64,000 nt of DNA from NCBI RefSeq assembly GCF_044324875.1, contig NZ_CP172185.1, one strand, 5' to 3'. The notes under the pieces are model-generated. The model was not told where the DNA came from. It did no database searches and saw nothing but the letters and a program-made list of their open reading frames with translations. The position numbers and the translations under genes were made by a program. The stretch is from Escherichia coli (GTDB lineage Bacteria; Pseudomonadota; Gammaproteobacteria; Enterobacterales; Enterobacteriaceae). Of this stretch, positions 39,188 through 61,813 are shown in pieces (within the stretch, counting starts at the first letter, position 1; each line of letters starts with the position of its first letter).

Positions 39188-39196
39188 TGAAACAAT

Positions 39197-39221: not shown

Positions 39222-39268
39222 AATAAATCAGTGATGGCAGAGTTGTTATTGTAAATAACTCTCCGTGT

Positions 39269-42184: not shown

Positions 42185-42186
42185 GA

Positions 42187-44432: not shown

Positions 44433-44514
44433 TAAATAGCCTCGAGTTTCGTTTTACAGGTTTTTATTCTAACCTGAATTGTTGATTTTCTGAATAAGTC
44501 TGACGTCAGTTGTT

Positions 44515-44680: not shown

Positions 44681-44709
44681 ACTAACGTCATACCAGGGAC
44701 GTTGTCTGA

Positions 44710-45723
44710 ATGGATGAGAAGCTAAAACATGCGGATTTATCGTCTTTGCCAGAGCAGGTGAGGGTTGCCGCTAGGGAGCTTGTTGACCTGAAGTTTCGTA
44801 TCGATATGGCAGCAAGAGGCGGTACGTCAGGGATACCACTTGACCTGCATGGGAGGATGACAGGAGGAGAATGGGGGCCGCATTGCGGGCTGGAATTTTT
44901 CTGCAGCATCATTCCTTTTTTCCCGCGAGATTTTGAAACCTGTTCAGTAACTGAAATGTTGGTTCCTACCTTACATACCTTCGGCTGCAACTGGCGTTGG
45001 TGGCCCGATCGTTATTGTAGCGACAAAGATGAACACTATATACGGCGTCACATTTTTTCTGATTACGGGCTGAAAAGTACGAGCTATACCTTCATTCCTC
45101 AGTTGGGATTGTTCTGCCCGAGTGAAGGTAAAAATCGTGTTAACTTCTGCCGCCATCACGGTATCGAATATATCCCCGCACAGGTTTATTCCCATGATTA
45201 CCCAGAAGCAAATCGAATCTCTGTGTACGTTCAGGATACTGCCGGAGGGCTGGATGTGTGGGCCGTTCTTGATAATCGCTATGTTCAGAAGGTTACTCAC
45301 TATGCCTTTGCGCTCCCACTTTTGTGCGCTTATGGGGTAGAGTTCCCAGGTAAGTGGCCAGCAGGATGGCCATCGATATCGGACCTCCTGGCTAATCAAC
45401 TGTGTTGCACTGATGACACAACCTTTCATAAACCCGTGATCGATATGCAAGCTGTCAGGGATACGCTGGATCGTGATGAGAACAGCAGAGAGGATGGGGA
45501 GATGTATGTCAAAACCAATGTGGTTGAGCTGCCGCTGGCCGGGCTGGTTCGCTTCATTCTGATCGCAATGTTACTGAGTTTAGGTGCGTTGTTCATCCAC
45601 GAGGTACTGGATGAGGGAAGCCTGTCCAGGATTGCACTGGGAATAAGCACTTTCACGGCTGGCGTGGTTGCTTCGTTTTTTATCCCAGCGTTCCGTATCA
45701 AGAAAAAATATCTTCGCAAATAG
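44710..45723 (+). CDS. hypothetical protein with C-terminal membrane anchor
   Basis: 337 aa, Cys/Trp/His-rich domain then two hydrophobic helices. Confidence 0.4.
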   Translation: MDEKLKHADLSSLPEQVRVAARELVDLKFRIDMAARGGTSGIPLDLHGRMTGGEWGPHCGLEFFCSIIPFFPRDFETCSVTEMLVPTLHTFGCNWRWWPDRYCSDKDEHYIRRHIFSDYGLKSTSYTFIPQLGLFCPSEGKNRVNFCRHHGIEYIPAQVYSHDYPEANRISVYVQDTAGGLDVWAVLDNRYVQKVTHYAFALPLLCAYGVEFPGKWPAGWPSISDLLANQLCCTDDTTFHKPVIDMQAVRDTLDRDENSREDGEMYVKTNVVELPLAGLVRFILIAMLLSLGALFIHEVLDEGSLSRIALGISTFTAGVVASFFIPAFRIKKKYLRK

Positions 45724-45739
45724 TTGTGGCATTTCTTGA

Positions 45740-45993
45740 ACACTTTTTCGAGACAGGTTCAACCGCAGGCATTCAGGCCAAACATGCGGTTAAACTACGT
45801 ATTCAATTAACTGCCCTAAATATGGCTAAGCGCCCGGACGATATGTCTGTCTGCACCTAGGTGGAAATTACACCCTCTAAAGGGAGCTGATCTTAGAGGT
45901 CATTGGGAAATATCAGTAAACTCTAACTGGCGAATTACCTTTCGATTTGAAGGCGAAGACGCAATTCTGGTTGACTATCAGGATTATCATTGA
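45740..45993 (+). pseudogene. HigB-like (RelE/killer family) toxin gene, frameshifted
   Basis: C-terminus KLHPLKGADLRGHWEISVNSNWRITFRFEGEDAILVDYQDYH; N-part in another frame ending TAG near 45858. Confidence 0.45.
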
Positions 45994-46001
45994 GGGATAA
46001 C

Positions 46002-46746
46002 TGAACCGCCCCGGGAATCCTGGAGACTAAACTCCCTGATAAAGAGGTAAACAGAATGACTAAAAATACTCGTTTTTCCCCCGAAGTCCGTCAGAGGGCG
46101 ATTCGTATGGTTCTGGAAAGTCAGGGCGAATATGACTCACAGTGGGCGGCAATTTGTTCCATTGCCCCAAAGATTGGCTGTACACCGGAGACTCTGCGTG
46201 TCTGGGTACGCCAGCATGAGCGGGATACCGGAGGCGGTGATGGCGGGCTCACCACCGCTGAACGTCAGCGTCTGAAAGAGCTGGAACGTGAAAATCGTGA
46301 ACTGCGCCGCATCGTCTATGGAAACGACATTCGTGCTGGATGCTCTGGAGCAGGCGTTATGGGCCCGTCGACCGTCCGGCACAGTCCATCACAGTGATAA
46401 AGGTTCTCAGTATGTATCGCTGGCCTACACACAGCGGCTTAAGGAAGCCGGATTACTGGCATCAACAGGAAGTACTGGTGACTCGTATGACAACGCGATG
46501 GCGGAGAGCATCAATGGCCTTTACAAAGCGGAGGTAATACACCGTAAGAGCTGGAAAAACCGGACAGAAGTGGAGCTGGCCACACTCACGTGGGTGGACT
46601 GGTATAACAATCGACGATTGCTGGAAAGGCTGGGCCATATCCCACCGGCAGAAGCAGAAAAAGCTTATTATGCTTCCATCGGAAACGATGATCTGGCAGC
46701 CTGAGTTCACAGATAAAACACTCTCCAGGAAACCCGGGGCGGTTCA
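46002..46746 (+). mobile_element. IS629-like (IS3 family) element with internal deletion
   Basis: terminal inverted repeats TGAACCGCCCCGGG...; OrfA 46056-46380 joined to OrfB C-terminus (to 46704); flanked by AAC/AAC. Confidence 0.6.
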
Positions 46747-46750
46747 AACT

Positions 46751-46959
46751 ATGAGTCGTATTCATAATCCCGCCACTCAGGCGCGGTTCTTCGTGAAGAT
46801 CTGGGAGATATGTCAGTCACAGACGCTGCCACCGCATTGGGCATTACTCGCACGGCGCTTTCCCGGATTCTGAACGAAAAAGCGGGTATTTCTGCGGATA
46901 TGGCGCTCCGTCTGGAATCAGCACTCGGAACCAGCGCCGAAATGTGGACAGGTATGTAA
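46751..46959 (+). pseudogene. HigA-like HTH antitoxin gene, frameshifted
   Basis: MSRIHNP... then frame switch to ...ALGITRTALSRILNEKAGISADMALRLESALGTSAEMW. Confidence 0.4.
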
Positions 46960-47159
46960 TCACAGTATGAGCTTTGGGTTGCTTCGCAAACTGCTCGCCC
47001 AAACATTCGCCCATTATTTCACCATGCCTGACATGCATTCCCCAACATTGGACGGGGAGCCGTCATGGAGGGGGCTACGCAGGAACCGCCGAAAGCACGC
47101 TGTTTTATATTTGTTTTATTGAATATAAGAGGAGGCCATAAAACGGCCCCCTTGTTTTT

Positions 47160-47480
47160 ATCAGAAAGAGTAACGGAAGCTGGCGTTCACCGCGTTATCC
47201 ACGTTGTACTTACCAAATGCCGATTTCTCAAACTCCAGACCAAAGCGGAGATTATCGCGAATTTCTGCATTCAGACCAACATTCATGAGCATACGTCCGT
47301 CTTTCTCGCCTTTGATGCGTTTTTCACCAGAGGCATCGCGCGGAACGGTTTCACTGTTTGCCAGAATGTCAAACTGGTAACCGAGGCCGGCACGGGCAGT
47401 GACTTTCCAGTCCTTACCAGAGAAGGTTTTACCGACATCGATACCGGTACGGCCAATCAGCGGGTTGAAGTCCTTTCTGG
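47160..47480 (-). pseudogene. outer-membrane beta-barrel protein gene fragment
   Basis: minus-strand reading ends ...NASFRYSF stop; no intact ORF. Confidence 0.3.
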
Positions 47481-47640
47481 TGTGAGAACCTTAAGGAAAT
47501 CGTCCGCAGCCCCATTACCGTCTTATATCACTGGCGCTGACATGTATTATCCGGGGAGTTAAGTCTGTCGATGTCCGACAGACTTTTGATAATGGAAACA
47601 ACATGCAGCGATAATGTGCATGCTGTTTTGCAGGTGGAAC

Positions 47641-48843
47641 TCAGAAGGTGAACTGCAACTGTGCGACCGCACCGTAAGTGTTGTCCGTGCCGATCAGGCC
47701 TGCCACATCAAGGTGAACCACATCAAACGGTGAGATACCAACCCCGGCCGTGAATGCACTGCCGTTGTTGCTGGCCAGATTCTGGCGGTAACCGGTACGT
47801 AACTGTGCCCATTTCCAGGCATTAAACTCAGCACCAACGGCGGCAAACTGACGTTTGCTGTCTGATGTGAAGCCGCTGGCCGGGGTCAGATCCACATCCA
47901 GTGCCGTGGTGAACATGTCGTTGTGCCATGATACGCCGGTCGTTACCTGCGGACGGATCCTGAAGGTTTCAGTGACACCATGTACCTCTTTGGTCTCAAT
48001 GCTGCGTGGGATCAGGTTTTGTGCGACCAGACCCAGCGTCCAGTTGTCATCCAGGTCCATGCTGGCACCGATATCAGCGTTAATACCGTTTTGGGTGTTG
48101 TGGTAACGGTTACCTTTGAATGCGCTGCTGTCATAGTTTTTGATCAGCGTATTGTAGTTAAACAGGTCAACACGCTGGAATTTTGGTGTGAAGCCCAGTG
48201 ACCATTTTTGTCCGGCCGTTTCCAGTTCAGTGGCCAGCGCAACGCCCACATCGGTGATCAGTGCGGCACGGGCAAAAGCCTGTGAGGTCAGTCTGTTTTT
48301 ATCCACATCCTGGCTGCCACTGTCTGCAATGCTTTCCAGATAGTTCAGGTCGGCATCGCTGACTTTACCGTCGACGCTGACAGTCCCGAACGTTTTCAGC
48401 ATCAGTGCAGCAGCGAGGGTATCACCGGGAAGGGCCGCCACAGCAGATACCCCGGCCTGTGCGCTGGCATGGGTGTTCCGGAAGTCCTGCAGTCTCTCTT
48501 TCAGGCGGGCCGCTGTCTGCGGTACCCCGGAGTGGCTGTCGACGGCACGGTCGAAGGCTTTCCAGTCATCGCTGATTTTGTCGGCGTTGTCGGCGATATT
48601 ACCCGGATCGGACAGCTGCGCACCCACGGACGGAAGCAGAAGACTGAAGTCATCTTTTGCACCGGATTTTGTCAGCAGTGCCGGGTTTGCCAGTGGGGCC
48701 ACACCATAGTGAGAGGAGGCAACCCCCGTTCCTCCCATCGCATCATTGCGGGCTTCAAAATATGACGTTGCTGCAGTCGAATTAAAGGAAAATAAAACGG
48801 CAGACGCGATGAGAGTACGGGTAATATGCTTTTTCATCATCAT
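47641..48843 (-). CDS. outer-membrane beta-barrel protein
   Basis: signal peptide; 400 aa; C-terminal ...QLQFTF aromatic terminus. Confidence 0.45.
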   Translation of the reverse strand: MMMKKHITRTLIASAVLFSFNSTAATSYFEARNDAMGGTGVASSHYGVAPLANPALLTKSGAKDDFSLLLPSVGAQLSDPGNIADNADKISDDWKAFDRAVDSHSGVPQTAARLKERLQDFRNTHASAQAGVSAVAALPGDTLAAALMLKTFGTVSVDGKVSDADLNYLESIADSGSQDVDKNRLTSQAFARAALITDVGVALATELETAGQKWSLGFTPKFQRVDLFNYNTLIKNYDSSAFKGNRYHNTQNGINADIGASMDLDDNWTLGLVAQNLIPRSIETKEVHGVTETFRIRPQVTTGVSWHNDMFTTALDVDLTPASGFTSDSKRQFAAVGAEFNAWKWAQLRTGYRQNLASNNGSAFTAGVGISPFDVVHLDVAGLIGTDNTYGAVAQLQFTF

Positions 48844-48944
48844 TTCAGTTTCCTGTATTGAGGTATTTTGGGTATAACAACAGAGGGCACGGCTGTGCCA
48901 TTAAAAATAGTTGGTGTATTATTCCGGTTTGTTGCTCAGTATTA

Positions 48945-49766
48945 TTACCAGGGGGATAACGGAACCCTGAATAACGCAGTGGGTAATATTTTTCCTGTTA
49001 TCAGATATTCTGCCTGTGCCGGAGTGAGTGTTACGGCGCGAACAGGGATATCCGGAGATATTTTTCGGGCCATCTGAAACCAGCCTTCTTTTTCTATATC
49101 CATTCTGACCGGATATAACGAAAGTACCGGATAAATAATGGTGTTATTAATTTCTTTTTTCTGCCTGAGCAGAACGCCGCAATATTCTCCGGAATGCGTT
49201 CCGGCAAACGGAAAACCATGCCAGAGAATAATGTCCATATTCTCGCGGGCTGAAATAATCCTGCAGAATATCTCCTGTGTGGCTGGCCAGTCTCCCGGAC
49301 GATACAGTGGATAATGCACCCTGCCGTTCAGCCATTCCGGACTGAGATAAAACCAGTCAGCCAGTGCTGCAAGAATCTCCCCGCTCAGATAGTCAGTGAG
49401 TCTGTCCGGCTCCCGGAAGACGGCAGGGCGGATATTCCAGGGGGCCAGTAATGCAGCCATCGTTGTTGCGCTGATATCATGTGCCTGCATGATGTGCTCC
49501 ATCCTGCTGAGAAGACGGCGGACGATGTTATCTGCAGGAAGAAACATTTCACTTAACGCGTCTTCGACCAGGATACGCGTCAGGTCAGAGACGGAAAGAG
49601 AAAGCTGTTCGCTCATGATACCAAGGGCATCCCTGACTCCCTGCGGATAACGAACCTGCAGGGGTGTGGACTGCAGCTGGCGATGACTGAGCAGGCATTC
49701 GCAAATTCGCTCCCTGTCCAGGGAGAGCATCATACGGGCGGCAATACCTGTGCTGTCAGTTTTCAT
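48945..49766 (-). CDS. hypothetical protein
   Basis: 273 aa ORF between OMP gene and rci. Confidence 0.35.
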   Translation of the reverse strand: MKTDSTGIAARMMLSLDRERICECLLSHRQLQSTPLQVRYPQGVRDALGIMSEQLSLSVSDLTRILVEDALSEMFLPADNIVRRLLSRMEHIMQAHDISATTMAALLAPWNIRPAVFREPDRLTDYLSGEILAALADWFYLSPEWLNGRVHYPLYRPGDWPATQEIFCRIISARENMDIILWHGFPFAGTHSGEYCGVLLRQKKEINNTIIYPVLSLYPVRMDIEKEGWFQMARKISPDIPVRAVTLTPAQAEYLITGKILPTALFRVPLSPW

Positions 49767-49978
49767 TTCACCTCCATGCGGGTCAGCGTGTTTTGTTCAT
49801 AAATTGAGTCTAAAGAGAGTGTTTTTTAAACGGAAGCGAGTTATTTCGATCGTTATGATCGAGTGTGTTTCAAGAGTGTTTGCAACTCTGTTTTAAGGGC
49901 GAATGAAAAGGATTCGGACAGGATGACCGTGATTAATTTAACCCGGAAGCAAAAGTTGATTTTCATTCTGATATGCCT

Positions 49979-51103
49979 TCAGTTTGTTAACGGACAAATC
50001 ATGACCCGTTCATCAATGTTTGCGGGTAGCTCGCCTGGCGTGGGAACGCGTTCACCCCGCTGAGCAGCCTGTGCCAGTGTGCGCAGCAACAATACGCTGG
50101 CATGAGATATAGCCAGTTCCCGGGTTTCTGCACGGGTTTCAAGGTCGAAATCGTGCAGTGTCACGACAAACAGCCCGTTTCTGCACCCGACAGTTGCAGG
50201 GTAGGGAACAAAATAAGGTGAAATTTTGCTGGTCTGTTTACGCCTTGCATCGAGTTTGCTGACCAGCTGATATGCCCGGAGATGCGTGTACCGTTTTAAC
50301 ATGTTCAGGGAGCGGTGGCCTGAAATAGCGGCAACTTCAATGACATTCAATGTACCAAGTTCGAAAAATCGGCTGATGGCTTCATGACGGAGATCGTGAA
50401 AATGCAGATTTTCTATTTTCAGGTCCAGAAGTGCGGTACGCCAGGCGCTTTTGAAACCGGATGAGGTGTAACTGAACACATTGCCGTTTATCTGTTGTGG
50501 CAGAATTTGCAGGTAGTTGCGAGCTTTCCGGGAGAGTGGGACATCGCGTGGTAAACCATTTTTCGTTTCAGGAAGATGCGCCACTCCGTGCTGCAAATCG
50601 AGGTGTTCCCAGCGTAATGTGAGAATTTCCCCCTGTCGCATTGCTGTTTCCAGGGCCAGATGGAAGATAACGTAGAGCTGCTGATTTTTATCTCTGAAAT
50701 AGCGGGAGAGTCGGCGTTCTTCGCCAGAAGTCAGGCGACGCTCTCGCCCATTACTGATTTTGGGTTTTCGGACCAGTTCAACAGGATTCATACGGCATGT
50801 CCCCCATTCCACACGGGCGATATTGAATAATGATGATAAAAGAGCAAGTTCAAGACGGACGGTGTTTCCGGTGATTTGACGCCCAGTTCGTGGGTTAATT
50901 TGAGCCAAACGCTGATCCCGGTAACTGGCGATATCAACGGTCGTGATTTCATCCATATAGCGATCGGCCACAGGGTGACGTTTAATCACATTGACGCGAT
51001 AAACCTCCTGCAGATGCCCTTTTTTATGGACGGAAACGGTTTTCAGGTATTTGTCCAGCGCCCGGTTGAGAGTCATTTTGCGAATTTTGATTTTTCGAAA
51101 CAT
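49979..51103 (-). CDS. rci: shufflon-specific tyrosine recombinase Rci
   Basis: 375 aa from ATG 51103 ([23 protein letters not shown]...); [11 protein letters not shown] and RYTHLRAY motifs; table ORF start inside shufflon repeat region trimmed. Confidence 0.75.
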
Positions 51104-51165
51104 ATCGGCCTTCCACGATAAAAACGGGGAAGGTAGGAATAGTGAAACGGAAATGCAATATCGCC

Positions 51166-51184
51166 GTGCCAATCCGGTTTGTGG
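51166..51184 (+). repeat. shufflon crossover repeat R1
   Basis: GTGCCAATCCGGTTTGTGG. Confidence 0.7.
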
Positions 51185-51673
51185 CTTGGAGGCAATAAAG
51201 TGAACTATTCTGCCTGTAAATGGTATGAAGCGACCTCCGCACATTTTATCGGTGGCAGAAGCGGAGGCTCTATTTATTACAAGCCGATTCAGTGCCCTGC
51301 CGGGTACGTCATGACAGGTACAAGAATGTACGGCATCGGAGATGGTGTTGATGAAGAGCACGTCGATGCTTACTGTTGCCCTTTTGGTTAGATTCCGAGG
51401 GCCGGTATTTAATTTTCTCCCGTTGGCTTATTTCTCACAGATTGCTATAGCCTGGAAACAACTCAGGGAGCCAGAGCCAGTAGCAATCCACCGATTGTTT
51501 TTGTAATCAGGGTAACTACCATCTGGTGAGTTGTATCCGTTATGGACCCACTGGGATAACCTGTAGCCGCCGGAGACCAACTTACTCCCCGATGGGCATA
51601 CCGCGTAAGACGATGTCTGAAAGCACCCATTCCCGCCGGATACTGTGAAACGCTCTTTTTTGTCACTGTTTTG

Positions 51674-51692
51674 CCACACACCGGATTGGCAC
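51674..51692 (-). repeat. shufflon crossover repeat R2
   Basis: reverse complement of GTGCCAATCCGGTGTGTGG. Confidence 0.7.
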
Positions 51693-51700
51693 TGGCCTCC

Positions 51701-51719
51701 GTGCCAATCCGGTGTGTGG
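51701..51719 (+). repeat. shufflon crossover repeat R3
   Basis: GTGCCAATCCGGTGTGTGG, 8 bp from R2. Confidence 0.7.
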
Positions 51720-52095
51720 ATTGGCTTTGAATCCTACCCTGTGGGAAGCCCTATCCCATGGCCATCTGCCACTCCTCCACAAGGCTATCTGTTGATGAAC
51801 GGCCAGTCGTTTTCCTGTTCCCGGTATCCTCAGCTTGCCCGTGCTTATCCTGGCTGTAAATTGCCCGATCTGCGCGGTGTTTTTATCCGTGGCTGGGATA
51901 ACGGGAAGGGACTTGATGGTGATCGGAACAGACAACTCCTGAGTTATCAGGCCGATCAATCAGGCGTCTATCACGAACGTGGCGGATGGCTGAAAGGGCA
52001 TCATAGTGGTATGCCATACTGGGCACAGGGGAGTACCACAGAAATGCGTCCCAAAAATATTGCATTCAACTACATTGTTAAAGCCAGCTAGGGAC

Positions 52096-53385
52096 TCACA
52101 TCTGATAGGCATACACAGAGAAAACACCGTTACCACAGGCGTAATTTTGTGGTGGTCTGGAGATGATTTGATATGACGCTCCCACTGGCACGGCAAATGA
52201 AATAAATGCTGTCTTTCCGTAGGAGGGGTTATTGCTGGCATTCATACCAATGAAAGCGCCGTTCACATAGCCCTGAAGATTTGATGTGTTGGCGCAATCA
52301 CCGCCACCGGCACCATTTCCACCGGAAGCGTACACAAACAAAGTTCCTCTGCCGTTATTTCTCCCGTTAAATGTTCCCCGGTGAGAACCCAGATTGCTGT
52401 AACTTCCGTCAGGTGCACCAATCGTTCGCCACACACCGGATTGGCACGAAAGTATTGCCCCTTTACTGTCGCGGCCTACAAGTCCGTCCGGTGAGCAGGA
52501 AGTACCTGCGGTGGCTGTTTTTTCCAGCTGTAAATACTCACCCGTGGAAAGACGCCCCTCAGACCGGACAGTTCCACCACTGACTTTTCCTCCTTTGAGC
52601 TCTCCTTCGGTTGTGATCCCTTTGTTGTTAACAGCACGTATCCATTGGCTGTCCGTCATGGTGAAGCCGCCACCATTTGGATGTAACCAACGATTTGATG
52701 TGACATCGCCTGAAAATCTGGCGTTTTTACCACTGGCTTCATTGATATTGGTGATGCTGTTATTATTCATATCAATGCCAGTATGCATTCTGTTTAAATC
52801 GGGTCTTCCCTGAACGCTGTAGCGGTAAAGCCGATCGCTTTCCTCCAGATCTTTTCCAGCCATTCGCATGGCGATATGCCCCTTGTTGCAGGTAATCTGA
52901 TAATTACTTCCCAGATCGGTCCAGCCGCCAAAGGCACCTGTAACGGAATTATTCTGGAGCATAAAACCACCGAGTCCATTAATCTGGCCCGCTATGCGAC
53001 GTAACCCATCTTCTTTAATATCCTGTCCTCCGGTTGTGCAGGTAAGTGCTTCCAGACGACCGGATAAATTATTTTTTCTGATACCGGTAATATAGCTGTG
53101 TCCAAAGGGGGAGCGGGAAAAACCGTTGTTCAGATATCCCTGCTGAATTAATTCATTTACCGTGATGGTTTTACTGGAAAGTGAGCTGGTTTTATCAGCC
53201 ACATAATTCTTTATTGCATTATTATATTCATCAGCATGTAAAGCCGCACTTTGATAAAGTTGTTCATTCAGCCAGTCTTCAATTTCTGAATAAATCATTG
53301 GCGTGGCGATACCAATTACTATCAGGCCTGCCAGAATTTCAAGCAGAATAAAACCTTTATCGTCATCGTGTCTGAATTTTTTCAC
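52096..53385 (-). CDS. pilV: type IVB minor pilin/adhesin PilV (current shufflon configuration)
   Basis: prepilin-like N-terminus GFILLEILAGLIVIG; C-terminal segment starts at R4. Confidence 0.7.
   Translation of the reverse strand: MKKFRHDDDKGFILLEILAGLIVIGIATPMIYSEIEDWLNEQLYQSAALHADEYNNAIKNYVADKTSSLSSKTITVNELIQQGYLNNGFSRSPFGHSYITGIRKNNLSGRLEALTCTTGGQDIKEDGLRRIAGQINGLGGFMLQNNSVTGAFGGWTDLGSNYQITCNKGHIAMRMAGKDLEESDRLYRYSVQGRPDLNRMHTGIDMNNNSITNINEASGKNARFSGDVTSNRWLHPNGGGFTMTDSQWIRAVNNKGITTEGELKGGKVSGGTVRSEGRLSTGEYLQLEKTATAGTSCSPDGLVGRDSKGAILSCQSGVWRTIGAPDGSYSNLGSHRGTFNGRNNGRGTLFVYASGGNGAGGGDCANTSNLQGYVNGAFIGMNASNNPSYGKTAFISFAVPVGASYQIISRPPQNYACGNGVFSVYAYQM
52429..52447 (-). repeat. shufflon crossover repeat R4, inside pilV
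   Basis: reverse complement of GTGCCAATCCGGTGTGTGG at constant/variable junction. Confidence 0.7.
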
Positions 53386-54032
53386 GTGAATATCTCCGAT
53401 GTGTGGATAACGGAATCAGGGAAGAGGGTCAGCACATACAGGGACCCGCAGAGAAACGGGGCAAACGGCAGCGCCAGCTGGCGTCTGCGACGGCAGAAAA
53501 TGAGGATAAACAGAAATGCTCCGGAGGCTGCGGCGGTGATTATGAGTGGAGTGTGTTGCGGTTGCGTCCACATTGCGATCCCCGCAATCAGGAACACATC
53601 ACCAAGGCCGAGCGCTTCCGTCCCTTTCGCTGCCAGAAAAATGCGTCGTAACAGGTATATCATGCCGAACCACAGTGACGCGTTGAGCAGGGCATGAGCC
53701 AGTGAGTCCTGGCTGTATCTGAACGCTGCGCCCAGAATAATAAGAGAAAGCGTGAATATCCGGGGAAGCCGACAGACAGCAATATCCGTCAGCGTCATTA
53801 CAGTTAATAATCCCGTCAGAATGGAAAGGAATAACAGTCCTGTCGCGTCAACACCATATGCACCGTTGAGGCAAATGCTCAGGACAGCCAGAAGACAACA
53901 GATGCACACCGCAGCGTTGTGTGGGCGGGTATTGTGTACTTCTGATAAATATACTGTGGCGGCGCTGTATGAAAGATACAGAATTGCCGCAAGGACAATC
54001 AGGATAATGCATATCGGGAGTAATTCAGACAC
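53382..54032 (-). CDS. pilU: prepilin peptidase PilU
   Basis: polytopic membrane protein, GLGDV motif. Confidence 0.65.
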   Translation of the reverse strand: MSELLPICIILIVLAAILYLSYSAATVYLSEVHNTRPHNAAVCICCLLAVLSICLNGAYGVDATGLLFLSILTGLLTVMTLTDIAVCRLPRIFTLSLIILGAAFRYSQDSLAHALLNASLWFGMIYLLRRIFLAAKGTEALGLGDVFLIAGIAMWTQPQHTPLIITAAASGAFLFILIFCRRRRQLALPFAPFLCGSLYVLTLFPDSVIHTSEIFT

Positions 54033-54044
54033 AGTTACCTCAGC

Positions 54045-54521
54045 TTAATCTTTTCTGAAATACCGGTTGTGGATTATTCGGGCATATATCATGCGCCGGG
54101 CTGTGTTATTTTTGCTGAATCCTGCGTTGTAACTGCCAAGGCATTCCCAGTTAACGCCGCAGCGTTGAAAATGGCGGGCCAGTATCCAGGCACCGGTATG
54201 AATATTCAGGCAGGGCTTTTTAAGCAGTTCATCCTTGTTTTTAATGACGCCCAGTTTTTTCAGTTCAGGAATATGCACTGAATTAATCTGCATTATTCCG
54301 TAATCCGTACTGATGATTTTTCCGGATTTGTTTTTATTGTGATTTATCGCAGTGGCGACCAGGCCGCTTTCCTGCTGTGCAATGGTTTTCAGAAGCTCAG
54401 GGGCAATCAGGTAACGTTTTCCGGCCTGAATAAAACAGGAATCGAGATGATTATTATTCATCACAGATGCGATTGATGTGTGACTGAATAAAAGCAGGAC
54501 AGAGAGATATAACCATTTCAT
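54045..54521 (-). CDS. pilT: lytic transglycosylase PilT
   Basis: signal peptide; SLT motifs ESG and GIMQIN. Confidence 0.6.
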   Translation of the reverse strand: MKWLYLSVLLLFSHTSIASVMNNNHLDSCFIQAGKRYLIAPELLKTIAQQESGLVATAINHNKNKSGKIISTDYGIMQINSVHIPELKKLGVIKNKDELLKKPCLNIHTGAWILARHFQRCGVNWECLGSYNAGFSKNNTARRMIYARIIHNRYFRKD

Positions 54522-54579
54522 TATGATAATCCCGGCAGTGACAGCATCCTCTGGTATTTAAGGATGCTGTCCGGAAACA

Positions 54580-55116
54580 TTAGCTGTTTGTTTCAAGGGT
54601 GATGTTATTTTTGTCGTTACTACATACTGTTACGGGATCCACAGTAGCCGGGGCGGTATTCATGATTTTGGTAAACATGGATGAACTGCGCAGGCTGTTA
54701 ATGAGTTCCACGCAATTTTCTTTCGGTACATTATTGCTGGTAATCGTATAACCATACTTATCTGCTGTTGCCTTAATGGTGACATCACCGCCCCAGGCAT
54801 TTTTGGCCTTGTTACCACCGGCGATCATATCGGCCGGCAGGGAACCACTCTGCGTCAGCGTTTTGATATAATCACTGCTGGTATATTGTCCCTGGAACTT
54901 GTACTGCTTCATTTTGGTTGCAATAGTCTGCAGGTTTTTCAGTTCGCGCTGGTTATCACTGGATGACATTGTGCTGGACATCTGACTTATTGCGAGAGCT
55001 ACCACAATACCGATGATAATCAGTGCACCGGCAATTTCCAGTAATGTTAAACCTTTATCCTCCTCTTTCTCTTTTTTTAAAGCAAAATAAGAATAAAGAC
55101 ATGATCTGAAGTTCAT
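54580..55116 (-). CDS. pilS: type IVB major pilin PilS
   Basis: prepilin leader then GLTLLEIAGALIIIGIV. Confidence 0.65.
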   Translation of the reverse strand: MNFRSCLYSYFALKKEKEEDKGLTLLEIAGALIIIGIVVALAISQMSSTMSSSDNQRELKNLQTIATKMKQYKFQGQYTSSDYIKTLTQSGSLPADMIAGGNKAKNAWGGDVTIKATADKYGYTITSNNVPKENCVELINSLRSSSMFTKIMNTAPATVDPVTVCSNDKNNITLETNS

Positions 55117-55165
55117 ATATCACTCCTGGTTTATGGGATGTTTCAGAAATATTCTGTATGCGGGA

Positions 55166-56266
55166 TTATTGTTTCAGCATGTCGCTGATACTGTAGATGG
55201 CAGATATCATGTTAAGAATAAAAAAGAAGACAAAACCTCCTGATATACCGGTAATAATTAATCCCATTCGTTTTACCCGTTTTTTTGCCTCTTCCAGCCA
55301 CTGATCGGCATAGAGTGCCATGGTTGCCACTCTGTCCTCCCTTTCGGAGTTCAGGAGCAGTTTATTGATGCATATTCTGGACGGAAAATCGTAACCGGAA
55401 TTTCGCATTGCTGTGGCCAGATTCTGACCGGATAATACATGTTTTCGTATTGCCTGAATTCTCTCCTTTAACCATTTATTCTTTTCTGCACCTTTTTCCA
55501 TTCGGAGCAGCGCCTGCGAAAGAGGAATATTAATCTGCAGCATGGATGAAATACTGAACAGATAATTCACCCCGTGTAAGGTCTGATACAGTGACCAGGG
55601 GGGAGCCTTGTCCAGCATCCTCCGGCCGGGGCCGGTATACCGGCTGAATGAAAAACGGATCAGAAGCGTCAGGGCGAAAATGGTCCCACAGAGCCAGAAT
55701 CCGTACCCGATGAAAAATTCCGACATGCCGGCAAGCAATTTCATCTGGAATGACCATTTATCTTCTGAAGCAAACGCACTGACGATGGGGATGATACGGG
55801 TATGGGCGTTGTACATATTCACCACACAGAGCGAAAGCAGCAGAAGGGGGTAGAGGCAGACGGCAATGAGGCTGGATGTCATTTCCCGCCGGGCTTTAAC
55901 GGTTCTGGCCACCTGGAAAAGGGCGTCGGCAATATTTCCGCGCTCTTCCCCGTTTCTGATTAACGTGGCTTCCTCCGGTGGCACCCAGGTTAACAGGGCA
56001 CCGGATAACATGCCGCTGGCTTTGATGGAATCGATGCATTCTTTTGCCAGAAAATACATGCCGGATGTGCCTTTCTTTTCACCAAAATCGGTTTCGATCT
56101 CGCAGAGAAATTCGAGTGCACGCAGGGACGGCGTTCCGTCACGTATCATGCCGCCCAGGGCTTCGTAGAACTCCACCCGGTTCAGGGCAAAGGTTTTTCT
56201 GGCTATCCAGACAGTCAGTGCTGTCAGCTCAATGTCGGTGTTGTTGAGTTTTTCCAGAAATCTCAT
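55166..56266 (-). CDS. pilR: pilus assembly inner-membrane platform protein PilR (GspF-like)
   Basis: about 366 aa with TM segments; ATG 56266 one nt after pilQ stop. Confidence 0.6.
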   Translation of the reverse strand: MRFLEKLNNTDIELTALTVWIARKTFALNRVEFYEALGGMIRDGTPSLRALEFLCEIETDFGEKKGTSGMYFLAKECIDSIKASGMLSGALLTWVPPEEATLIRNGEERGNIADALFQVARTVKARREMTSSLIAVCLYPLLLLSLCVVNMYNAHTRIIPIVSAFASEDKWSFQMKLLAGMSEFFIGYGFWLCGTIFALTLLIRFSFSRYTGPGRRMLDKAPPWSLYQTLHGVNYLFSISSMLQINIPLSQALLRMEKGAEKNKWLKERIQAIRKHVLSGQNLATAMRNSGYDFPSRICINKLLLNSEREDRVATMALYADQWLEEAKKRVKRMGLIITGISGGFVFFFILNMISAIYSISDMLKQ

Positions 56267-56267
56267 G

Positions 56268-57788
56268 TCAGTGCAGCAGCGTATAGCTGTCCTCGTCGAT
56301 GGGAGAGATGTAATGGGCCGCCAGCGGATCAACCTGCCCGCTGTTGATTTTTCCCAGCAGATGCTGATTTCGTGTCATGCCGCCCAGCTCCCGGTGCCAG
56401 TATGTTCTGGCCTCAATACGCCCCTTTTCCCGGTACAACTGGAAAAAACGGGCATCCGGGGAGATGACTTCTGCGATCACCGTTCGTCCTGTCACGCCAC
56501 GCCAGCAGTGCGGGCAGCCTTCATGATTTCGCAGATATACCTGGTCCGGGTTGCAGACGCTTTCCACCAGGCGCCGTTCATCATCCGTGCGCTCGGTAGC
56601 CACCTCATGCCAGGGGCGACGGCAGTGCGGACATATCAGCTGAACCAGACGCTGGCTCAGCAGGCCAATGAACAGTTGCGGGTCGGCAATCATCCTGGCC
56701 TGTACCCCCTCCATCTCAAGACGTTCGAGGATGTTAATCGGGTCGTTCGCATGGATGGTGGTCAGCATCAGATGCCCGGTCATGGCGGCTTTTATTGCCG
56801 TAATGGCGGAATCGTGGTCACGGATTTCGCCGTTCAGGATCCCGTCAGGGTCAAGACGCAGTGCTGATTTAATGGAGTCCACCCAGCCCTGTGCGGAATC
56901 CATGACGGCAGTCTGAATGGCACCGGGTATACGGCCCTCTGGCGGGGATTCAATGGTGAACAGCCTGCGACGGGGCAGAAGAATACCGCCGGTATTGTTG
57001 AAGCCGTACTGTTCAAGGTATGCCGCAGAGGCGGTTCTCAGCGTGGTGGATTTTCCTGAACCTGTTGGTCCTGAGAGCGTGATAATACCTTCAGGGCGCT
57101 GCAGAATACGGCGCAGGGTGCGCTCCTGCTCAGGGTGGTAGCCCAGCATGCTGAAGGTCGGGATTTGCTGACTGTCATCCTTGATCAGACGGAGCACAGC
57201 ATAGAGGCCGCCCACGCAGGGATAGTGGGAGTAGCGTGCACCAAACAGACCGGCCAGTTTCAGGTACTGCTCTGAAAGACGCGCATCCTGAGGCACCCCG
57301 GGATCAAACTGTGTGCCCTTGATGACGTCGGTCATGCCGGAATAGGTGGCCCCCAGTAATTCGAGGCCTTCTTCTTTCCGGAGGATATCGAGCACTTCCA
57401 GTTCGCCGTGAACCCGGGCTTCCACATAGGTGAAGTCCGTGTTGTCTCGTCCCGGGGTCATATGAAGGTCTGAGGCATCCAGTTGAGCGGCTTTTCTGAT
57501 GTAATCAAGAACTTTTCTTTGTACTGTGTTGATCCCTCCGTCGGATAAAACGCCCGGTGCACGTTCCGTATTATTGCTGTTCAGGGTTGCGATAACGTCA
57601 AGAGTGGTAAAATCGAATTTGCTGATTTTTCCCGGATAGCGGGAGCGTAAGAGCGTCAGGTAACGTTGTACAGAGGTGATGTGCTTCTTCGCCTCGACGA
57701 CTTTCACCCTGATTTTTCCGTCAGCGTCATGCTGAATTGCGACGAAATCACGAATATCTTCAGGAGGCAGTTCGATAGTCTCTGGCAT
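56268..57788 (-). CDS. pilQ: pilus assembly ATPase PilQ (GspE-like)
   Basis: Walker A SGPTGSGKST; C-terminal Cys tetrad CPHC...CPHC. Confidence 0.8.
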   Translation of the reverse strand: MPETIELPPEDIRDFVAIQHDADGKIRVKVVEAKKHITSVQRYLTLLRSRYPGKISKFDFTTLDVIATLNSNNTERAPGVLSDGGINTVQRKVLDYIRKAAQLDASDLHMTPGRDNTDFTYVEARVHGELEVLDILRKEEGLELLGATYSGMTDVIKGTQFDPGVPQDARLSEQYLKLAGLFGARYSHYPCVGGLYAVLRLIKDDSQQIPTFSMLGYHPEQERTLRRILQRPEGIITLSGPTGSGKSTTLRTASAAYLEQYGFNNTGGILLPRRRLFTIESPPEGRIPGAIQTAVMDSAQGWVDSIKSALRLDPDGILNGEIRDHDSAITAIKAAMTGHLMLTTIHANDPINILERLEMEGVQARMIADPQLFIGLLSQRLVQLICPHCRRPWHEVATERTDDERRLVESVCNPDQVYLRNHEGCPHCWRGVTGRTVIAEVISPDARFFQLYREKGRIEARTYWHRELGGMTRNQHLLGKINSGQVDPLAAHYISPIDEDSYTLLH

Positions 57789-57797
57789 GATGGCACC

Positions 57798-58259
57798 TCA
57801 CGGGAGTAGCGTCTGCCTGTTGCCGTTGTATTCCAGAATCACACTGTCCGGTGTGATTTGTTCCACCATGAACAGTGTACCGGGTAATGCCTGTCCGGCC
57901 CTGACATCAGTTTCAGTTCCTCCGGGGAGTATGACGCGTGCTGAAAGCTGTGGCTGAATACCAAAGATTTCTTTCAGACGGGGGGATGAAAATGCCTGTG
58001 AACCGGAGGAGGTGCCAGCCGCATTTTCCGGCTGATGTCCCGTGACAGAACCGGAAACCGGGGAGATACCCTGTTCCAGTGTCCGCAATTCATGACGAAT
58101 TTTTTCTCTTGCCAGCATCGCTTCATACAGGGCGGTTTCTTCCTGAATCTGCTCAATCTGCAGTTGTTTGTTCTGTGACGCGTCATTTTCGTTGCCGGCC
58201 ACTGCCATTGCCGGTAACAGCAGGGCTGCAATCAGCAGCGCTTTTGTTTTATCGTGCAT
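57798..58259 (-). CDS. pilP: pilus assembly protein PilP
   Basis: signal peptide MHDKTKALLIAALLLPAMAVA; table ORF trimmed. Confidence 0.45.
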   Translation of the reverse strand: MHDKTKALLIAALLLPAMAVAGNENDASQNKQLQIEQIQEETALYEAMLAREKIRHELRTLEQGISPVSGSVTGHQPENAAGTSSGSQAFSSPRLKEIFGIQPQLSARVILPGGTETDVRAGQALPGTLFMVEQITPDSVILEYNGNRQTLLP

Positions 58260-59547
58260 AATATTTACCTGTGAACTGATAACGGAAACGACCATTTTCC
58301 AGTTGTCTTGTGACAGAGAGAAAACGGACAGATGGCTCGCTGAAGCGCTCTGCCAGCTGGTTAGCCGGGAGTAGCGTCTGTATCTGCAGGTCATACTCTT
58401 TCCACGGTGGCTGGATGATGTTTCCGTTTTCATCAGTGAAGCTGTTATTGACTTCCTGCCAGTCAATCTGCAGTTGAACTGACTGTGCGAGCGTGGTCAG
58501 TCGTTCCTGCAGGTCTCGGGTTTCCGGAAGGGAATCAACCGGGACAGGATTATCCGGGAGCCGGAATGTGACCGGCAGTGCAACGCCGCCAGAGTTCCCT
58601 TCAGGCATAACAATAAACGGCCGGGTGTCTGTGAGTTCAGTGATGCGCCGGATGAAGGCTGTCACTGTCGTGCCTGCTGTATTGGTGTATGAAGAACGCA
58701 GATTACCGCTGTTACCGTCAGAAGAACATTCAGCCAGGGTATAACGCCATCCGGCAGCAGACAGTGGCGTCTGGTTCCATGTTGTGCTGCATTGCCGGAT
58801 AAATTCTCCGCTCTCAGGCTGCCTCGTCCATGGTGGCGTTATACGTGCTTCAGCTGCTTTCCGGGCGCTTTCTTCCCGTTCCGCTTTTTCCGCCTGCCAG
58901 ATTTCATAACGTTGCCAGCCGTACCACGATGCGCCAAGCAGCGTGATGATGAGTAAGGCTGTCATTAACTGTGGGCCTCTGGACACGGGGAGCAGACGCG
59001 CTTCTGCCGGATGCTTTCTGGTGCTGATCAGGTTTGACAGCGGTAGCGGGATACACCGACTGTCTGGTGAAAAACCGTCAGGTTCGTAGCGTACCCAGCC
59101 GTTTTCCGGTTCCGCATTGAGCATCAGGAACGTGTTGCGGGCTTCCGTGATTTCAGTCGGGGTACCGGTAACGTCGTTAACCAGAATGCCATTAATCACC
59201 GATACAAACGCACAGGTGAGTTCAGCGTCGTCGTTCTCGATGATGAAAATGGCATACCCACCTGATTTGAGTAGCGGGCGTATTAACATTGCCAGTGACA
59301 GGCACTGGCGAATGTTACGGGGGATATCTGCATCCTGACGACTGAGCAGGGCAATCATCATTTCATCACCGTTTTCACCGTCGTGGTTGTGGCAGGAAAG
59401 ATACAGTTCTGCGCCCTGTGACCGGGCAAACCGCCGGGCATTCCGGTAACCGGGAGGTATGCTCTTCCAGTCAAGGCCCGCAAGGAATGCCTGTTTACCC
59501 GATATCAGTGAAACCGGACGAATTTTTTTCTGCATTGACCCGTTCAA
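58249..59547 (-). CDS. pilO: pilus assembly protein PilO
   Basis: 432 aa, single internal TM helix; operon position. Confidence 0.45.
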   Translation of the reverse strand: MNGSMQKKIRPVSLISGKQAFLAGLDWKSIPPGYRNARRFARSQGAELYLSCHNHDGENGDEMMIALLSRQDADIPRNIRQCLSLAMLIRPLLKSGGYAIFIIENDDAELTCAFVSVINGILVNDVTGTPTEITEARNTFLMLNAEPENGWVRYEPDGFSPDSRCIPLPLSNLISTRKHPAEARLLPVSRGPQLMTALLIITLLGASWYGWQRYEIWQAEKAEREESARKAAEARITPPWTRQPESGEFIRQCSTTWNQTPLSAAGWRYTLAECSSDGNSGNLRSSYTNTAGTTVTAFIRRITELTDTRPFIVMPEGNSGGVALPVTFRLPDNPVPVDSLPETRDLQERLTTLAQSVQLQIDWQEVNNSFTDENGNIIQPPWKEYDLQIQTLLPANQLAERFSEPSVRFLSVTRQLENGRFRYQFTGKYYAR

Positions 59548-59558
59548 GGGAACCTCCG

Positions 59559-61184
59559 TCAGATTACGTGCGGTGTGATCAGCACAACCAGAATGGTGTC
59601 ATCGTCACCGCTGTCAGTGCCGCCACCCAGCCCGAAGAATGCCGGGCTGCCGACGCCCTGGCGCACGGATTTGCTGCCGGACTGCCGGAATCCGCTGAGA
59701 ATGACGGTCTGACCTGATTTCAGGTCGATGGTCTGGTTGATGGTTTTCAGGTCCACCGTGGGTACCTGTGCCCGGCTGCCGCCGCTCTCGAACACCTCAA
59801 AGGTGGGTTTGTCGGAGAGGTTCATGCTGAAGAGCAGCTGCAGGCTGCGCGCATCCGGCTGAATGAACGGCAGCAGGGTCATGTTGAAGCCGGTGGTGAT
59901 GGTGGCGGCGTTCAGGGAGGTGCTGGTCCCGACGTTGGCCGTGGTGTCGGTGGTGACACCTTCGATATAGCCCTGCTGGCTGGCCACCTGCATGGGCACC
60001 GGCGTCATGTTTTTGGTGACGGCGGAGTTCTGTGTGACCACGCTGACGGTGCCCTGACTGGAGAGCGCCTTCAGGAAGGCCTTCGAGCCGGTGAGCTTAC
60101 CGTCCACAATGGAGACGCCACTGGTGATGATGTCATCGGCGGCACTGCTGAATGCCCCTCCCAGCGTGAGGCCGAGACGTCCGTCGCTGAAGACGGCATT
60201 CCAGTCAATGCCGGCCTGGTCACGGCGGGTTTTTCTGACGCTGAGGACTTCCACGTTCAGCACCACCTGACGTCGCATCTCGCGGTTACGTGCCTCCACA
60301 AAACGGCTGACGGTGTCGAGGACCCGAGGGGTGTCGGTGACGGTGAGAAAGCCGGTGGCAAGCACCATCCGGCCGGTCCCGGGGGTCAGCATGGCACCGA
60401 CGGCATTTTTCAGGTCCTCATAGAGGGTGGACTTCATGTCGACCGTGGTGGTCTGGGTGTTGCTGGCCTCCCCGCTGAGGGTGCCGGCGTTACTGCCGGT
60501 ACTGCTGCCGGATGAGGAGGAGGCGGTGCCACTGACGACTCTGGCATTGTAGGCGACCTGGCTGTCCATGTAGGTGACCGGGAAGGTGCGTGTCTCCAGC
60601 CAGTAAAAGGTGATGGCGCGCCGGTCACTGTCGTAACGGTACGAGATACCGAGCCGGGAGGCGACGGTATCCAGCAGCTGCCGCAGCCCGGTGGCGCTGA
60701 GTTCCGGCAGGACGGCACCGCCGCCCGGGGGGATGACCTGTGCGCCACTGCCGACGGCGGCCAGCGGCACCATGCCGTTCGGGTCAGGTGCGGGGATTGC
60801 GCCTGTCAGCTGCTGTGTGGGGCCGGTGGTGGCCAGCGCCTGCCAGACGTCGGCGGTGATGGTCACGGGGATACCGCAGCTTCCGGTGATGCGCTGGGCT
60901 ATCTGCCGCAGGCTGATATCCCGGCGGGTGTTGATGATGATGGGGCAGCCCGGCAGGCTCTGGTGTGCGGGGCTGACGCTGACAGGAGAGGGGTTGATCC
61001 ACTGTCGCGTGGTCTCCGTGACCACCGGCCGGGATTTACGGAGTTCGCCCGCGTGCCGGCGCGCTTTCTCCAGTGTGGCGGTGGCGTCTTTTTCCGTGTT
61101 GCTGATACGTTCGGCCGTACCGCAGCCTGACAGCAGCAGGGCGACGGCAGTCAGTGGCAGGAGCATGTGTTGTCTTTTTTTCAT
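59559..61184 (-). CDS. pilN: secretin-like outer-membrane lipoprotein PilN
   Basis: lipobox LLSGC; large Gly/Ser/Thr-rich secretin-like body; table ORF trimmed. Confidence 0.6.
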   Translation of the reverse strand: MKKRQHMLLPLTAVALLLSGCGTAERISNTEKDATATLEKARRHAGELRKSRPVVTETTRQWINPSPVSVSPAHQSLPGCPIIINTRRDISLRQIAQRITGSCGIPVTITADVWQALATTGPTQQLTGAIPAPDPNGMVPLAAVGSGAQVIPPGGGAVLPELSATGLRQLLDTVASRLGISYRYDSDRRAITFYWLETRTFPVTYMDSQVAYNARVVSGTASSSSGSSTGSNAGTLSGEASNTQTTTVDMKSTLYEDLKNAVGAMLTPGTGRMVLATGFLTVTDTPRVLDTVSRFVEARNREMRRQVVLNVEVLSVRKTRRDQAGIDWNAVFSDGRLGLTLGGAFSSAADDIITSGVSIVDGKLTGSKAFLKALSSQGTVSVVTQNSAVTKNMTPVPMQVASQQGYIEGVTTDTTANVGTSTSLNAATITTGFNMTLLPFIQPDARSLQLLFSMNLSDKPTFEVFESGGSRAQVPTVDLKTINQTIDLKSGQTVILSGFRQSGSKSVRQGVGSPAFFGLGGGTDSGDDDTILVVLITPHVI

Positions 61185-61811: not shown

Positions 61812-61813
61812 GG

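Follow-up and report, generated by a model that had tools for sequence, protein, structure and literature searches.

The window analysed here, a stretch of 64,000 nt from Escherichia coli (assembly GCF_044324875.1, contig NZ_CP172185.1), contains a recombinase gene, rci, and the gene for a pilus tip protein, pilV, separated by an interval that holds four short repeats. The repeat pattern GTGCCAATCCGGTKTGTGG was searched across the whole 64-kb window with up to three mismatches tolerated, and exactly four matches were obtained. Each was a perfect 19-bp copy of GTGCCAATCCGGT(T/G)TGTGG; shuffled sequences gave a mean of 0.06 matches, and none of 100 shuffles reached four. The copies, termed sfx sites, start at 51166 (+), 51674 (-), 51701 (+) and 52429 (-), and therefore lie in the alternating orientation, between rci and the constant region of pilV, that had been read from the DNA earlier. 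The first site, sfx1 (51166-51184, +), consists of a 7-bp core, GTGCCAA, and a 12-bp right arm, TCCGGTTTGTGG, which faces into the first of two segments; it is the sole copy with T at repeat position 14. The scan placed sfx2 at 51674-51692 (-), sfx3 at 51701-51719 (+) and sfx4, the pilV-proximal recombination site, at 52429-52447 (-). The core and right arm match all the sfx sites extracted from R64, R721 and the IncK2/Z plasmids, and the left arms of the four sites differ from one another. An 8-bp spacer, TGGCCTCC (51693-51700), separates sfx2 from sfx3; neighbouring sites in R64 are likewise 8 bp apart.

The rci gene (49979-51103, -) encodes an intact shufflon-specific tyrosine recombinase of 374 aa, recognised by the Pfam profile PF00589 Phage_integrase (E=1.4e-22); NCBIfam yielded only Xer-type matches below threshold, so that Pfam was the informative source. 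Across its full length, the protein shares 98% amino-acid identity with Rci of the IncK2/Z plasmid pBOKZ_020007, 95% with that of pZPK-H21, 90% with that of R721 and 75% with that of R64, and its catalytic-box motifs occupy invariant columns of the alignment. Next to it lie traF and traE (47641-49766, -), I-complex plasmid genes that travel with rci. A scan for promoters and terminators found fewer promoter-like sites than in shuffles and none positioned for rci or pilV, and was uninformative on rci expression. On the other side of the repeats, the pilV constant region (52448-53385, -) has a prepilin-like N-terminus and matches PF04917 Shufflon_N over residues 37-317. The remainder of the type IVB thin-pilus operon follows at 53382-62539 (-), with genes for the PilU peptidase, the PilT transglycosylase and the major pilin PilS, as well as pilR, pilQ, pilP, pilO, pilN, pilM and pilL. 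These operon annotations were transferred from a 99.7%-identical locus; the NCBIfam profile search gave no match for PilV, TraE or PilU.

The repeats bound two segments, X (489 bp) and Y (709 bp), each with a convergent pair of cassettes in frame with the constant 5' part of pilV. The four open reading frames named in the earlier note are all present, and each is open in the frame of its repeat when translated from it. They are promoterless 3' cassettes that start inside the repeat, where they encode CQSG(V/L)W and run on for a total of 74-129 codons, and are not independent genes. Within X, cassette C' (CQSGLW followed by 68 aa; 51167-51391, +) is identical to C' of pZPK-H21 and homologous to C' of R64 and R721. 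Its partner, which we call Xm (CQSGVW followed by 81 aa; 51428-51691, -), differs from the C cassette usually paired with C'. An identical Xm cassette (100%) was found on seven PLSDB plasmids, and the idea that segment X is specific to integrative and conjugative elements (ICEs) was rejected on this ground. Within Y, cassette A' (CQSGVW followed by 123 aa; 51702-52091, +) is phage tail-collar-like, with PF07484 Collar scored at E=3.3e-12 in its 442-aa PilV fusion, and cassette A (CQSGVW followed by 110 aa; 52096-52446, -) is homologous to R64 PilVA. The earlier note had taken 52096-52428 as the expressed cassette, and A is indeed the one currently joined to pilV, as a 429-aa frame at 52096-53385, while C', Xm and A' are silent in the present isomer. 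An open cassette at random window positions has a chance probability of 0.11-0.18 each, a very lenient estimate in a window so dense in genes, and we therefore relied on homology and on observed fusions instead.

Since the constant region comprises 312 codons plus 2 nt, every PilV fusion is in frame. The four alternative C-termini proposed for PilV were all recovered: each predicted full-length fusion occurs verbatim in public assemblies. The A fusion (429 aa) was found on 34 contigs, the tail-collar A' fusion (442 aa) on 165, the C' fusion (387 aa) on 104 and the Xm fusion (400 aa) on 169. The A' form is the expressed one in the avian pathogenic E. coli (APEC) strain E19035, the C' form in strain CM2 and the Xm form in strain GF43. 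Draft assemblies further contained 24 contigs with a truncated PilV of 312 aa; in each of the eight that were inspected, of up to 218 kb, the sequence breaks off 1-2 nt short of the pilV-proximal site. GCA_003887415.1 and GCA_013078745.1 are examples of assemblies with contigs that break off in this way.

An analysis of natural isomers was performed on six loci, namely the window and five complete chromosomes that are 99.8-100% identical to it. Five of the eight possible arrangements were found among them. Taking the window as X+Y+, TUM1886 is X-Y+, with X inverted alone; E19035 is X+Y-, with Y inverted alone; CM2 is Y-X-, with both segments inverted as a block; and GF43 is Y+X+, in swapped order. 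The rci gene of TUM1886 is annotated as frameshifted. All arrangements are exact cut-and-paste products of the 19-bp sites; inversion of the spacer is confined to those that call for a block inversion, and the spacer reads GGAGGCCA in GF43, the swapped-order isomer that was checked. In every arrangement, the T that sets one repeat apart from the others, with G, at position 14 remains attached to the C' end of X, and the crossover thus lies 5' of this position, which is consistent with the core. The suggestion that two segments invert and swap the PilV tip is hence seen directly among near-identical chromosomes. The rci-pilV interval was confirmed as a genuine DNA-inversion switch, or shufflon, with four alternative ends for the tip protein of a mating pilus. 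The anatomy and reading frames of the locus are established, as are past inversions of all three kinds among near-identical loci.

The shufflon is carried by a chromosomal conjugative island of E. coli and not by a plasmid. Positions 1-14491 of the window are 99.3% identical to a region of APEC E19035, and positions 16801-23575 are 96.6-97.5% identical; the matching region is annotated with TIGR037xx ICE proteins, TraD, a conjugative ATPase and TraG-N. In the E19035 genome, replication genes of the STY4528/STY4534 family lie just past the position of the left end of the window. At the GF43 locus (99.7-99.9% identical), an integrase gene and tRNA-Phe lie ~3.8 kb past its right end, so that near-identical copies of the island adjoin a tRNA gene. 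By these resemblances, the host is classed as an ICEEc2-like conjugative island of the PAGI-2/pKLC102/SPI-7 family with the MPF_G transfer type. ICEEc2 itself, from avian E. coli BEN374, is an ICE of the same family for which a type IV pilus has been implicated in transfer (PMC4458695, PMC6761156, PMC11537424), and it is located at a phe tRNA gene, as are the near-identical relatives of the window. Most of the closest relatives are chicken or APEC isolates. Among related islands, the number of segments ranges from one to four, with single-segment versions in two other E. coli ICE copies (L022 and L026). Literature searches on pheV-linked shufflons, on pheV islands encoding a type IV pilus and on chromosomal or ICE shufflons in E. 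coli turned up nothing specific to this locus.

Comparison with known systems places the shufflon module closest to plasmids of the B/O/K/Z group of the I-complex (pBOKZ_020007, pZPK-H21, pMbl536; pCT), in which the sfx sites are identical. The module is nearly identical to that of the IncK2/Z plasmids: the Rci proteins share 95-98% identity, and at the nucleotide level segment Y matches their segment A with 99.4-99.6% identity. The number of segments is two in pMbl536, three in pBOKZ and four in pZPK-H21, and one of the two segments in pMbl536 is the same [C'|Xm] segment. The present locus differs from these plasmids in lying on a chromosomal ICE with MPF_G, whereas they are of the MPF_I type, and of the I-type tra genes it has only traE and traF. 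For the 5' part of pilV and the downstream pil genes, identity is 87% with pZPK-H21 and far lower with pBOKZ. A native ICE pil cluster with only its shufflon derived from a plasmid was not supported as stated, because 47641-51396 (traF-traE-rci) is 96.9% identical in nucleotides to one IncK2/Z plasmid, pBOKZ_020007, and the stretch from pilV 5' to pilS is 87% identical to another.

The earlier note had placed the locus closer to R64 than to SPI-7. This holds in kind, although the nearest relatives are the IncK2/Z plasmids and not R64. Shared with R64, the IncI1 archetype, for which the record NC_005014 was used, are the 7-bp core, the right-arm consensus, the 8-bp spacers, the convergent cassette pairs and the position of rci immediately downstream, and the A and C' cassettes of the two are homologous. 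The archetype has four segments, seven sfx sites and seven cassettes, in contrast to two, four and four here; no relationship exists between its A' (73 aa) and the tail-collar cassette of 129 aa, and neither the latter nor Xm has a characterised R64 counterpart. The variable triplets of the sites also differ, being ACC, CGG, ACT and ACG in R64, and GTG and TTG here. The IncI2 shufflons of R721 and TP114 have the same sfx consensus, including GTG-type repeats, but consist of three or four segments with six to eight cassettes on MPF_T plasmids (PMC9045228). As described in the literature, the SPI-7 shufflon of Salmonella Typhi is likewise borne on an ICE of the same family; rci comes after a type IVB pil operon there, and the PilV C-terminus is switched through 19-bp inverted repeats (bioRxiv 10.1101/2025.10.13.681940). 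The same description gives it a single invertible segment and two PilV forms; by the account of Tam 2004 contained in that preprint, one segment and a pair of 19-bp repeats make up the Typhi system, compared with two segments and four repeats here, and the greater complexity proposed for the present locus is borne out to that extent.

Taken together, the locus is very probably a two-segment shufflon, in which clustered site-specific inversion acts at the 3' end of pilV within the type IVB thin-pilus operon of an ICEEc2-like island. By the R64-type mechanism (PMC9045228), the adjacent tyrosine recombinase would pair any two oppositely oriented sfx sites, and strand exchange within the core would invert X alone, Y alone or the X-spacer-Y block. 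Rci would then be the enzyme behind the observed inversions. The right arms lie within the segments and encode CQSG(V/L)W in frame, so that whichever cassette abuts the constant region (A, tail-collar A', C' or Xm) completes pilV. Eight DNA isomers would arise in this way, together with four forms of PilV with 429, 442, 387 and 400 aa.

PilV would act as the minor pilin and tip adhesin of the thin pilus, and, because the locus is carried by an ICE, the pilus would function in transfer of that element. PilV variants of R64 and TP114 fix recipient specificity through lipopolysaccharide (LPS) (PMC9045228, PMC12282955), and the PAPI-1 pilus binds recipient LPS (PMC5297154). By analogy, the four tips would bind different LPS structures on the recipient surface and bias the entry of the island, or of a co-resident plasmid, in liquid. 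The thin pili of SPI-7 are tied to self-association and host-cell adhesion rather than to mating, and the selected function could therefore differ here. An active shufflon might instead be selected in the gut or avian host for adhesion, self-aggregation, biofilm formation or evasion of pilus-specific phage, and not for the choice of recipients, a reading that we consider unlikely. In its favour, PilV switching in SPI-7 was linked to self-association in Tam 2004, as relayed in the preprint cited above (bioRxiv 10.1101/2025.10.13.681940), PMC3377399 discusses adhesion and biofilm roles for the thin pili of the I-complex, poultry isolates predominate among the closest relatives, and one cassette carries the tail-collar-like domain. 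The island nevertheless has a complete-looking MPF_G transfer apparatus, the part of PMC4458695 that cites Roche 2010 reports that the ICEEc2 pilus works in mating-pair formation and transfer, and these cassettes are shared with conjugative IncK2/Z plasmids, whose pilus is used for mating in liquid (PMC12282955). One role does not preclude the other.

The preferred reading, an inverting shufflon, was also weighed against a frozen one, intact-looking but no longer inverting in the source strain, with PilV fixed as the A variant. A single assembled sequence displays one arrangement only, and inactive shufflons are documented in Paratyphi C (bioRxiv 10.1101/2025.10.13.681940) and on pO113, pO26_vir and pSERB1 (PMC3377399). 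Some copies may indeed be frozen now, such as TUM1886 with its frameshift annotation. For the window itself this is very improbable: its rci is full length with conserved catalytic motifs, its four sites are perfect, all four fusions are common in databases and draft assemblies break at an sfx site. In principle, strains could differ in isomer because of old events that became fixed, but this is disfavoured because identity of at least 99.8% spans five arrangements. The locus is a real and recently active shufflon, and switching is probably ongoing within cultures. Nineteen base pairs is shorter than the length usually needed for efficient RecA recombination. That the isomers are assembly artefacts or products of RecA at short inverted repeats, and not of Rci, is hardly credible: assemblers are known to be confused by shufflons (Brouwer 2015, as cited in PMC12282955) and draft contigs break at the pilV-proximal site, but the five arrangements come from independent complete assemblies, exact at the 19-bp sites and with the spacer inverted solely as block inversion demands, and assembly trouble itself implies mixed templates.

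The shufflon described here is a small, ordinary example of a well-known system. Standard annotation already recognises such a locus, and the current understanding of shufflons is unchanged by it. Its value is mainly practical, in that it is a programmed source of structural heterogeneity that will break short-read assemblies and yield spurious differences between otherwise identical E. coli chromosomes, and the annotated pilV product depends on the isomer picked by the assembler. The I-complex plasmid shufflon module, including its cassettes, is also in circulation among chromosomal ICEs of E. coli from poultry and humans, where it has between one and four segments. A broader proposal, which we regard as distinctly unlikely, is that traF, traE, rci, the sfx cassettes and pil form a unit recently exchanged between IncK2/Z/I-type plasmids and ICEEc2-like islands. 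Since the two carry identical sfx sites, one Rci in a cell could then serve both replicons in trans, cassettes could pass from one to the other, and a pool of tips shared between replicons would result. ICEs of this kind can drive Hfr-like chromosome transfer (PMC13127887). If such a pool exists, the four tips would help to decide which E. coli lineages receive chromosomal DNA, and if the tips select recipients, they would influence the spread of islands able to mobilise it.

A search of both strands of the 64-kb window, allowing up to three mismatches, returned exactly four matches to GTGCCAATCCGGTKTGTGG, all of them exact, at 51166(+), 51674(-), 51701(+) and 52429(-), where the earlier note had placed its repeats. 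By chance, dinucleotide-preserving shuffles gave a mean of 0.06 matches and reached four in 0 of 100. The repeats (sfx1 to sfx4) were flanked by a 374-codon ORF (49979-51103, minus) and the 5' 938 nt of a 429-codon ORF (52096-53385, minus), and delimited segment X (51185-51673, 489 bp between repeats), an 8-bp inter-segment spacer (51693-51700, TGGCCTCC) and segment Y (51720-52428, 709 bp). Translation from the second base toward the repeat 3' end showed an open frame from every repeat, yielding CQSGLW+68 aa, CQSGVW+81 aa, CQSGVW+123 aa and CQSGVW+110 aa from 51166, 51674, 51701 and 52429, respectively. Frame arithmetic gave a constant part of 312 codons and 2 nt for the 429-codon ORF; the repeat therefore completes a Ser codon and brings any cassette into frame. 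The ORFs listed in the earlier note do exist, but as cassettes beginning within the repeat and not as independent genes. The left 12 bp beside each core differed at all four sites in the window, and R64 sfx sites display the same asymmetry, conserved to the right and unconserved to the left of the core (PMC9045228). The locus qualifies as a shufflon on every sequence-level criterion.

The stretch comprising sfx2, the spacer and sfx3 (51674-51719) forms a perfect hairpin with a 19-bp stem, which was flagged on the plus strand by a terminator scan and folded as pilV-sense RNA at -41.3 kcal/mol (z = -7.1). Because it is placed between pilV and rci whatever the isomer, it is a candidate attenuator of read-through into rci; it could also affect mRNA stability.

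The 374-aa protein contained the Phage_integrase catalytic domain (PF00589, E=1.4e-22) and aligned end to end with shufflon recombinases, its conserved box motifs falling in invariant columns. This Rci was 98% identical to that of pBOKZ_020007 (IncK2/Z), 95% to pZPK-H21, 90% to R721 and 75% to R64. The 429-codon ORF is PilV, with PF04917 ('bacterial shufflon protein, N-terminal constant region') covering residues 37-317, and beyond it come a prepilin peptidase gene, a lytic transglycosylase gene and the gene of the major type IVB pilin, then the remaining pil operon. Nucleotide identity between segment Y and segment A of IncK2/Z plasmids was 99.4-99.6%. Segment Y holds the currently expressed cassette A (minus, PilVA type) and A'-tf (plus), whose product resembles a phage tail collar (PF07484, E=3.3e-12) and has no relation to R64 A' (73 aa). 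Segment X holds C' (plus), identical to C' of pZPK-H21, and Xm (minus), which stands in place of the C cassette that C' usually has as partner; the nearest pZPK-H21 match to Xm was a different cassette at about 65% nucleotide identity. Segment X is therefore a mosaic. Copies of its Xm half at 100% identity in seven PLSDB plasmids ruled out a segment unique to the island, and one IncK2/Z plasmid, pMbl536, has this C'/Xm segment in a shufflon of two segments.

Copies of the 3.6-kb shufflon region at 99.8-100% identity were present in complete E. coli chromosomes, and their arrangements were read by splitting each near-identical copy at the sfx sites. Five of the eight possible arrangements were found in six loci, window included, bearing out the inversion proposed in the earlier note: X+ Y+ in the window, X- Y+ in TUM1886, X+ Y- in APEC E19035, Y- X- in CM2, where the entire shufflon was inverted as a block, and Y+ X+ in GF43, where the 8-bp spacer was inverted, corresponding to block inversion together with both single inversions. 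Among these near-identical loci, each of the three permitted event types occurred. The repeats differ at one position only (T or G at position 14, within the right arm), and this difference stayed with the C' end of X in every arrangement. The exchange point therefore lies 5' of position 14, where a crossover in the 7-bp core would put it. The four alternative PilV C-termini anticipated earlier were also recovered: the predicted full-length fusions, built and matched by exact sequence, occurred verbatim in public contigs, namely A (429 aa, 34 contigs), A'-tf (442 aa, 165), C' (387 aa, 104) and Xm (400 aa, 169). The annotation of TUM1886, a strain with X in the orientation opposite to that of the window, gives its rci a frameshift (L002 3080-4203); this copy has either frozen recently or contains a sequencing error.

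The protein cluster of the full-length fusions also included numerous 'partial' PilV entries, 311-312 aa long. One was traced to 24 contigs, and the eight independent draft contigs inspected (up to 218 kb; L009-L016) all ended 1-2 nt short of the pilV-proximal sfx (window 52447-52449), which accounts for these database entries. Shufflon heterogeneity breaks short-read assemblies in this way, according to Brouwer 2015 as cited in PMC12282955. The contig ends are consistent with within-culture mixing, though not proof of it.

The locus is best explained as a two-segment shufflon that works or did so until very recently. Rci would synapse oppositely oriented sfx and exchange strands in the 7-bp core, inverting X, Y or both and producing eight isomers with four PilV tips; switching is presumably Rci-dependent and probably ongoing in the window strain. 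As to function, mating-pair stabilisation with recipient choice is favoured by analogy, since in liquid matings of R64 and TP114 recipient specificity is set by PilV variants that bind distinct LPS core structures (PMC9045228, PMC12282955), LPS of the recipient is recognised by the PAPI-1 pilus (PMC5297154) and ICEEc2 transfer is reported to need its pilus (PMC4458695). A role in adhesion or aggregation, already proposed for SPI-7, is a live alternative and would not exclude the mating role. The intact rci, the perfect sfx sites and the observed isomers make a frozen shufflon unlikely. Assembly artefacts or RecA-mediated events do not fit rearrangements that are exact from site to site, spacer behaviour included.

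For comparison, all sfx-type sites were extracted from R64, R721 and two IncK2/Z plasmids. These share with the window the 7-bp core GTGCCAA, the right arm TCCGGTNNNTGG and the 8 bp between adjacent segments; R64 has seven sfx sites and four segments. The block from traF (47641) through traE and rci to the shufflon was 96.9% identical in nucleotides to one IncK2/Z plasmid, and pilV (5' part) through pilS was 87% identical to another and roughly 65-72% to R64. These identities point to a shufflon module of B/O/K/Z plasmid type, probably exchanged recently between plasmids and ICEs. The resemblance to R64 suggested earlier holds as to kind, though IncK2/Z plasmids are the closest relatives. The I-complex genes traF and traE (47641-49766) lie on an ICE without other I-type (MPF_I) tra genes and appear to have been transferred as one block with rci and the shufflon.

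The window is part of an MPF_G ICE of the PAGI-2/pKLC102/SPI-7 family and not a plasmid. Its first 23.5 kb showed 96.6-99.3% identity to an APEC E19035 region annotated with TIGR037xx 'integrating conjugative element' proteins, TraD coupling protein, conjugative ATPase and TraG-N, and STY4528/STY4534-family replication genes lie there just past the position of the window's left end. In the GF43 locus (99.7-99.9% identical), the pil operon is followed by helicase, TraI-domain and integrase genes and a tRNA-Phe beside yqgA-speC, which is the pheV site. This setting matches published descriptions of ICEEc2 of avian E. coli, a PAPI/pKLC102-family element at a phe-tRNA site whose type IV pilus functions in forming mating pairs and in transfer (PMC4458695, PMC6761156, PMC11537424).

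Several further features were observed on the island. A 695-aa TonB-dependent receptor (14620-16707, plus; NCBIfam PRK13486, 1539 bits against a 924-bit cut-off) lies among the ICE transfer genes in a region (14491-16801) missing there in APEC E19035, and represents cargo inserted into the T4SS module. The alignments to GF43 and APEC E19035 leave a gap at 33682-36322, in which an IS21-family element lies (33804-36222, IstA-like and IstB-like ORFs). A cargo/defence stretch at 36322-47641, read from the annotation of GF43 and E19035 at 99.9% identity, carries genes for the antirestriction protein ArdA and for LPD29 and DUF1281 proteins, an autotransporter fragment, a type III restriction-modification pair (39269-44223) and decayed RelE/HigA toxin-antitoxin genes, and adjoins the plasmid-like traF on its right.

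Chromosomal shufflons had one segment in SW070917 and TUM9803, two in SCU-106 (canonical C'/C plus A'-tf/A), three in SCU-171, FDN-4, Br_112, AR_0085, SF-088 and FDAARGOS_1287, and four in EC17CM6; the window's two-segment form is one point along this continuum. With two segments it falls outside the single-segment SPI-7 type and is, as had been claimed, more complex. Among 5,426 complete E. coli genomes, 10 had the full X segment. Some ICE shufflons have reassorted or decayed cassettes: FDAARGOS_1287 (L027) has a hybrid segment with ends C' and an A-type cassette as well as a second C' copy, and the four-segment array of EC17CM6 (L020) includes truncated cassettes of 8, 31 and 96 codons.

In a 2025 plasmid-mobility review, I1, I2 and B/O/K/Z plasmids are the only ones listed with shufflons (PMC12282955); the ICE-borne precedent is SPI-7. 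No description of E. coli ICE shufflons was found in the searchable literature, a coverage outside which the key ICEEc2 paper falls; the PGAP label in related genomes already reads 'shufflon system ... pilus tip adhesin PilV'. The window shufflon would not surprise a specialist; its practical yield is a catalogue of isomers, along with evidence that plasmids and ICEs draw on one pool of cassettes.
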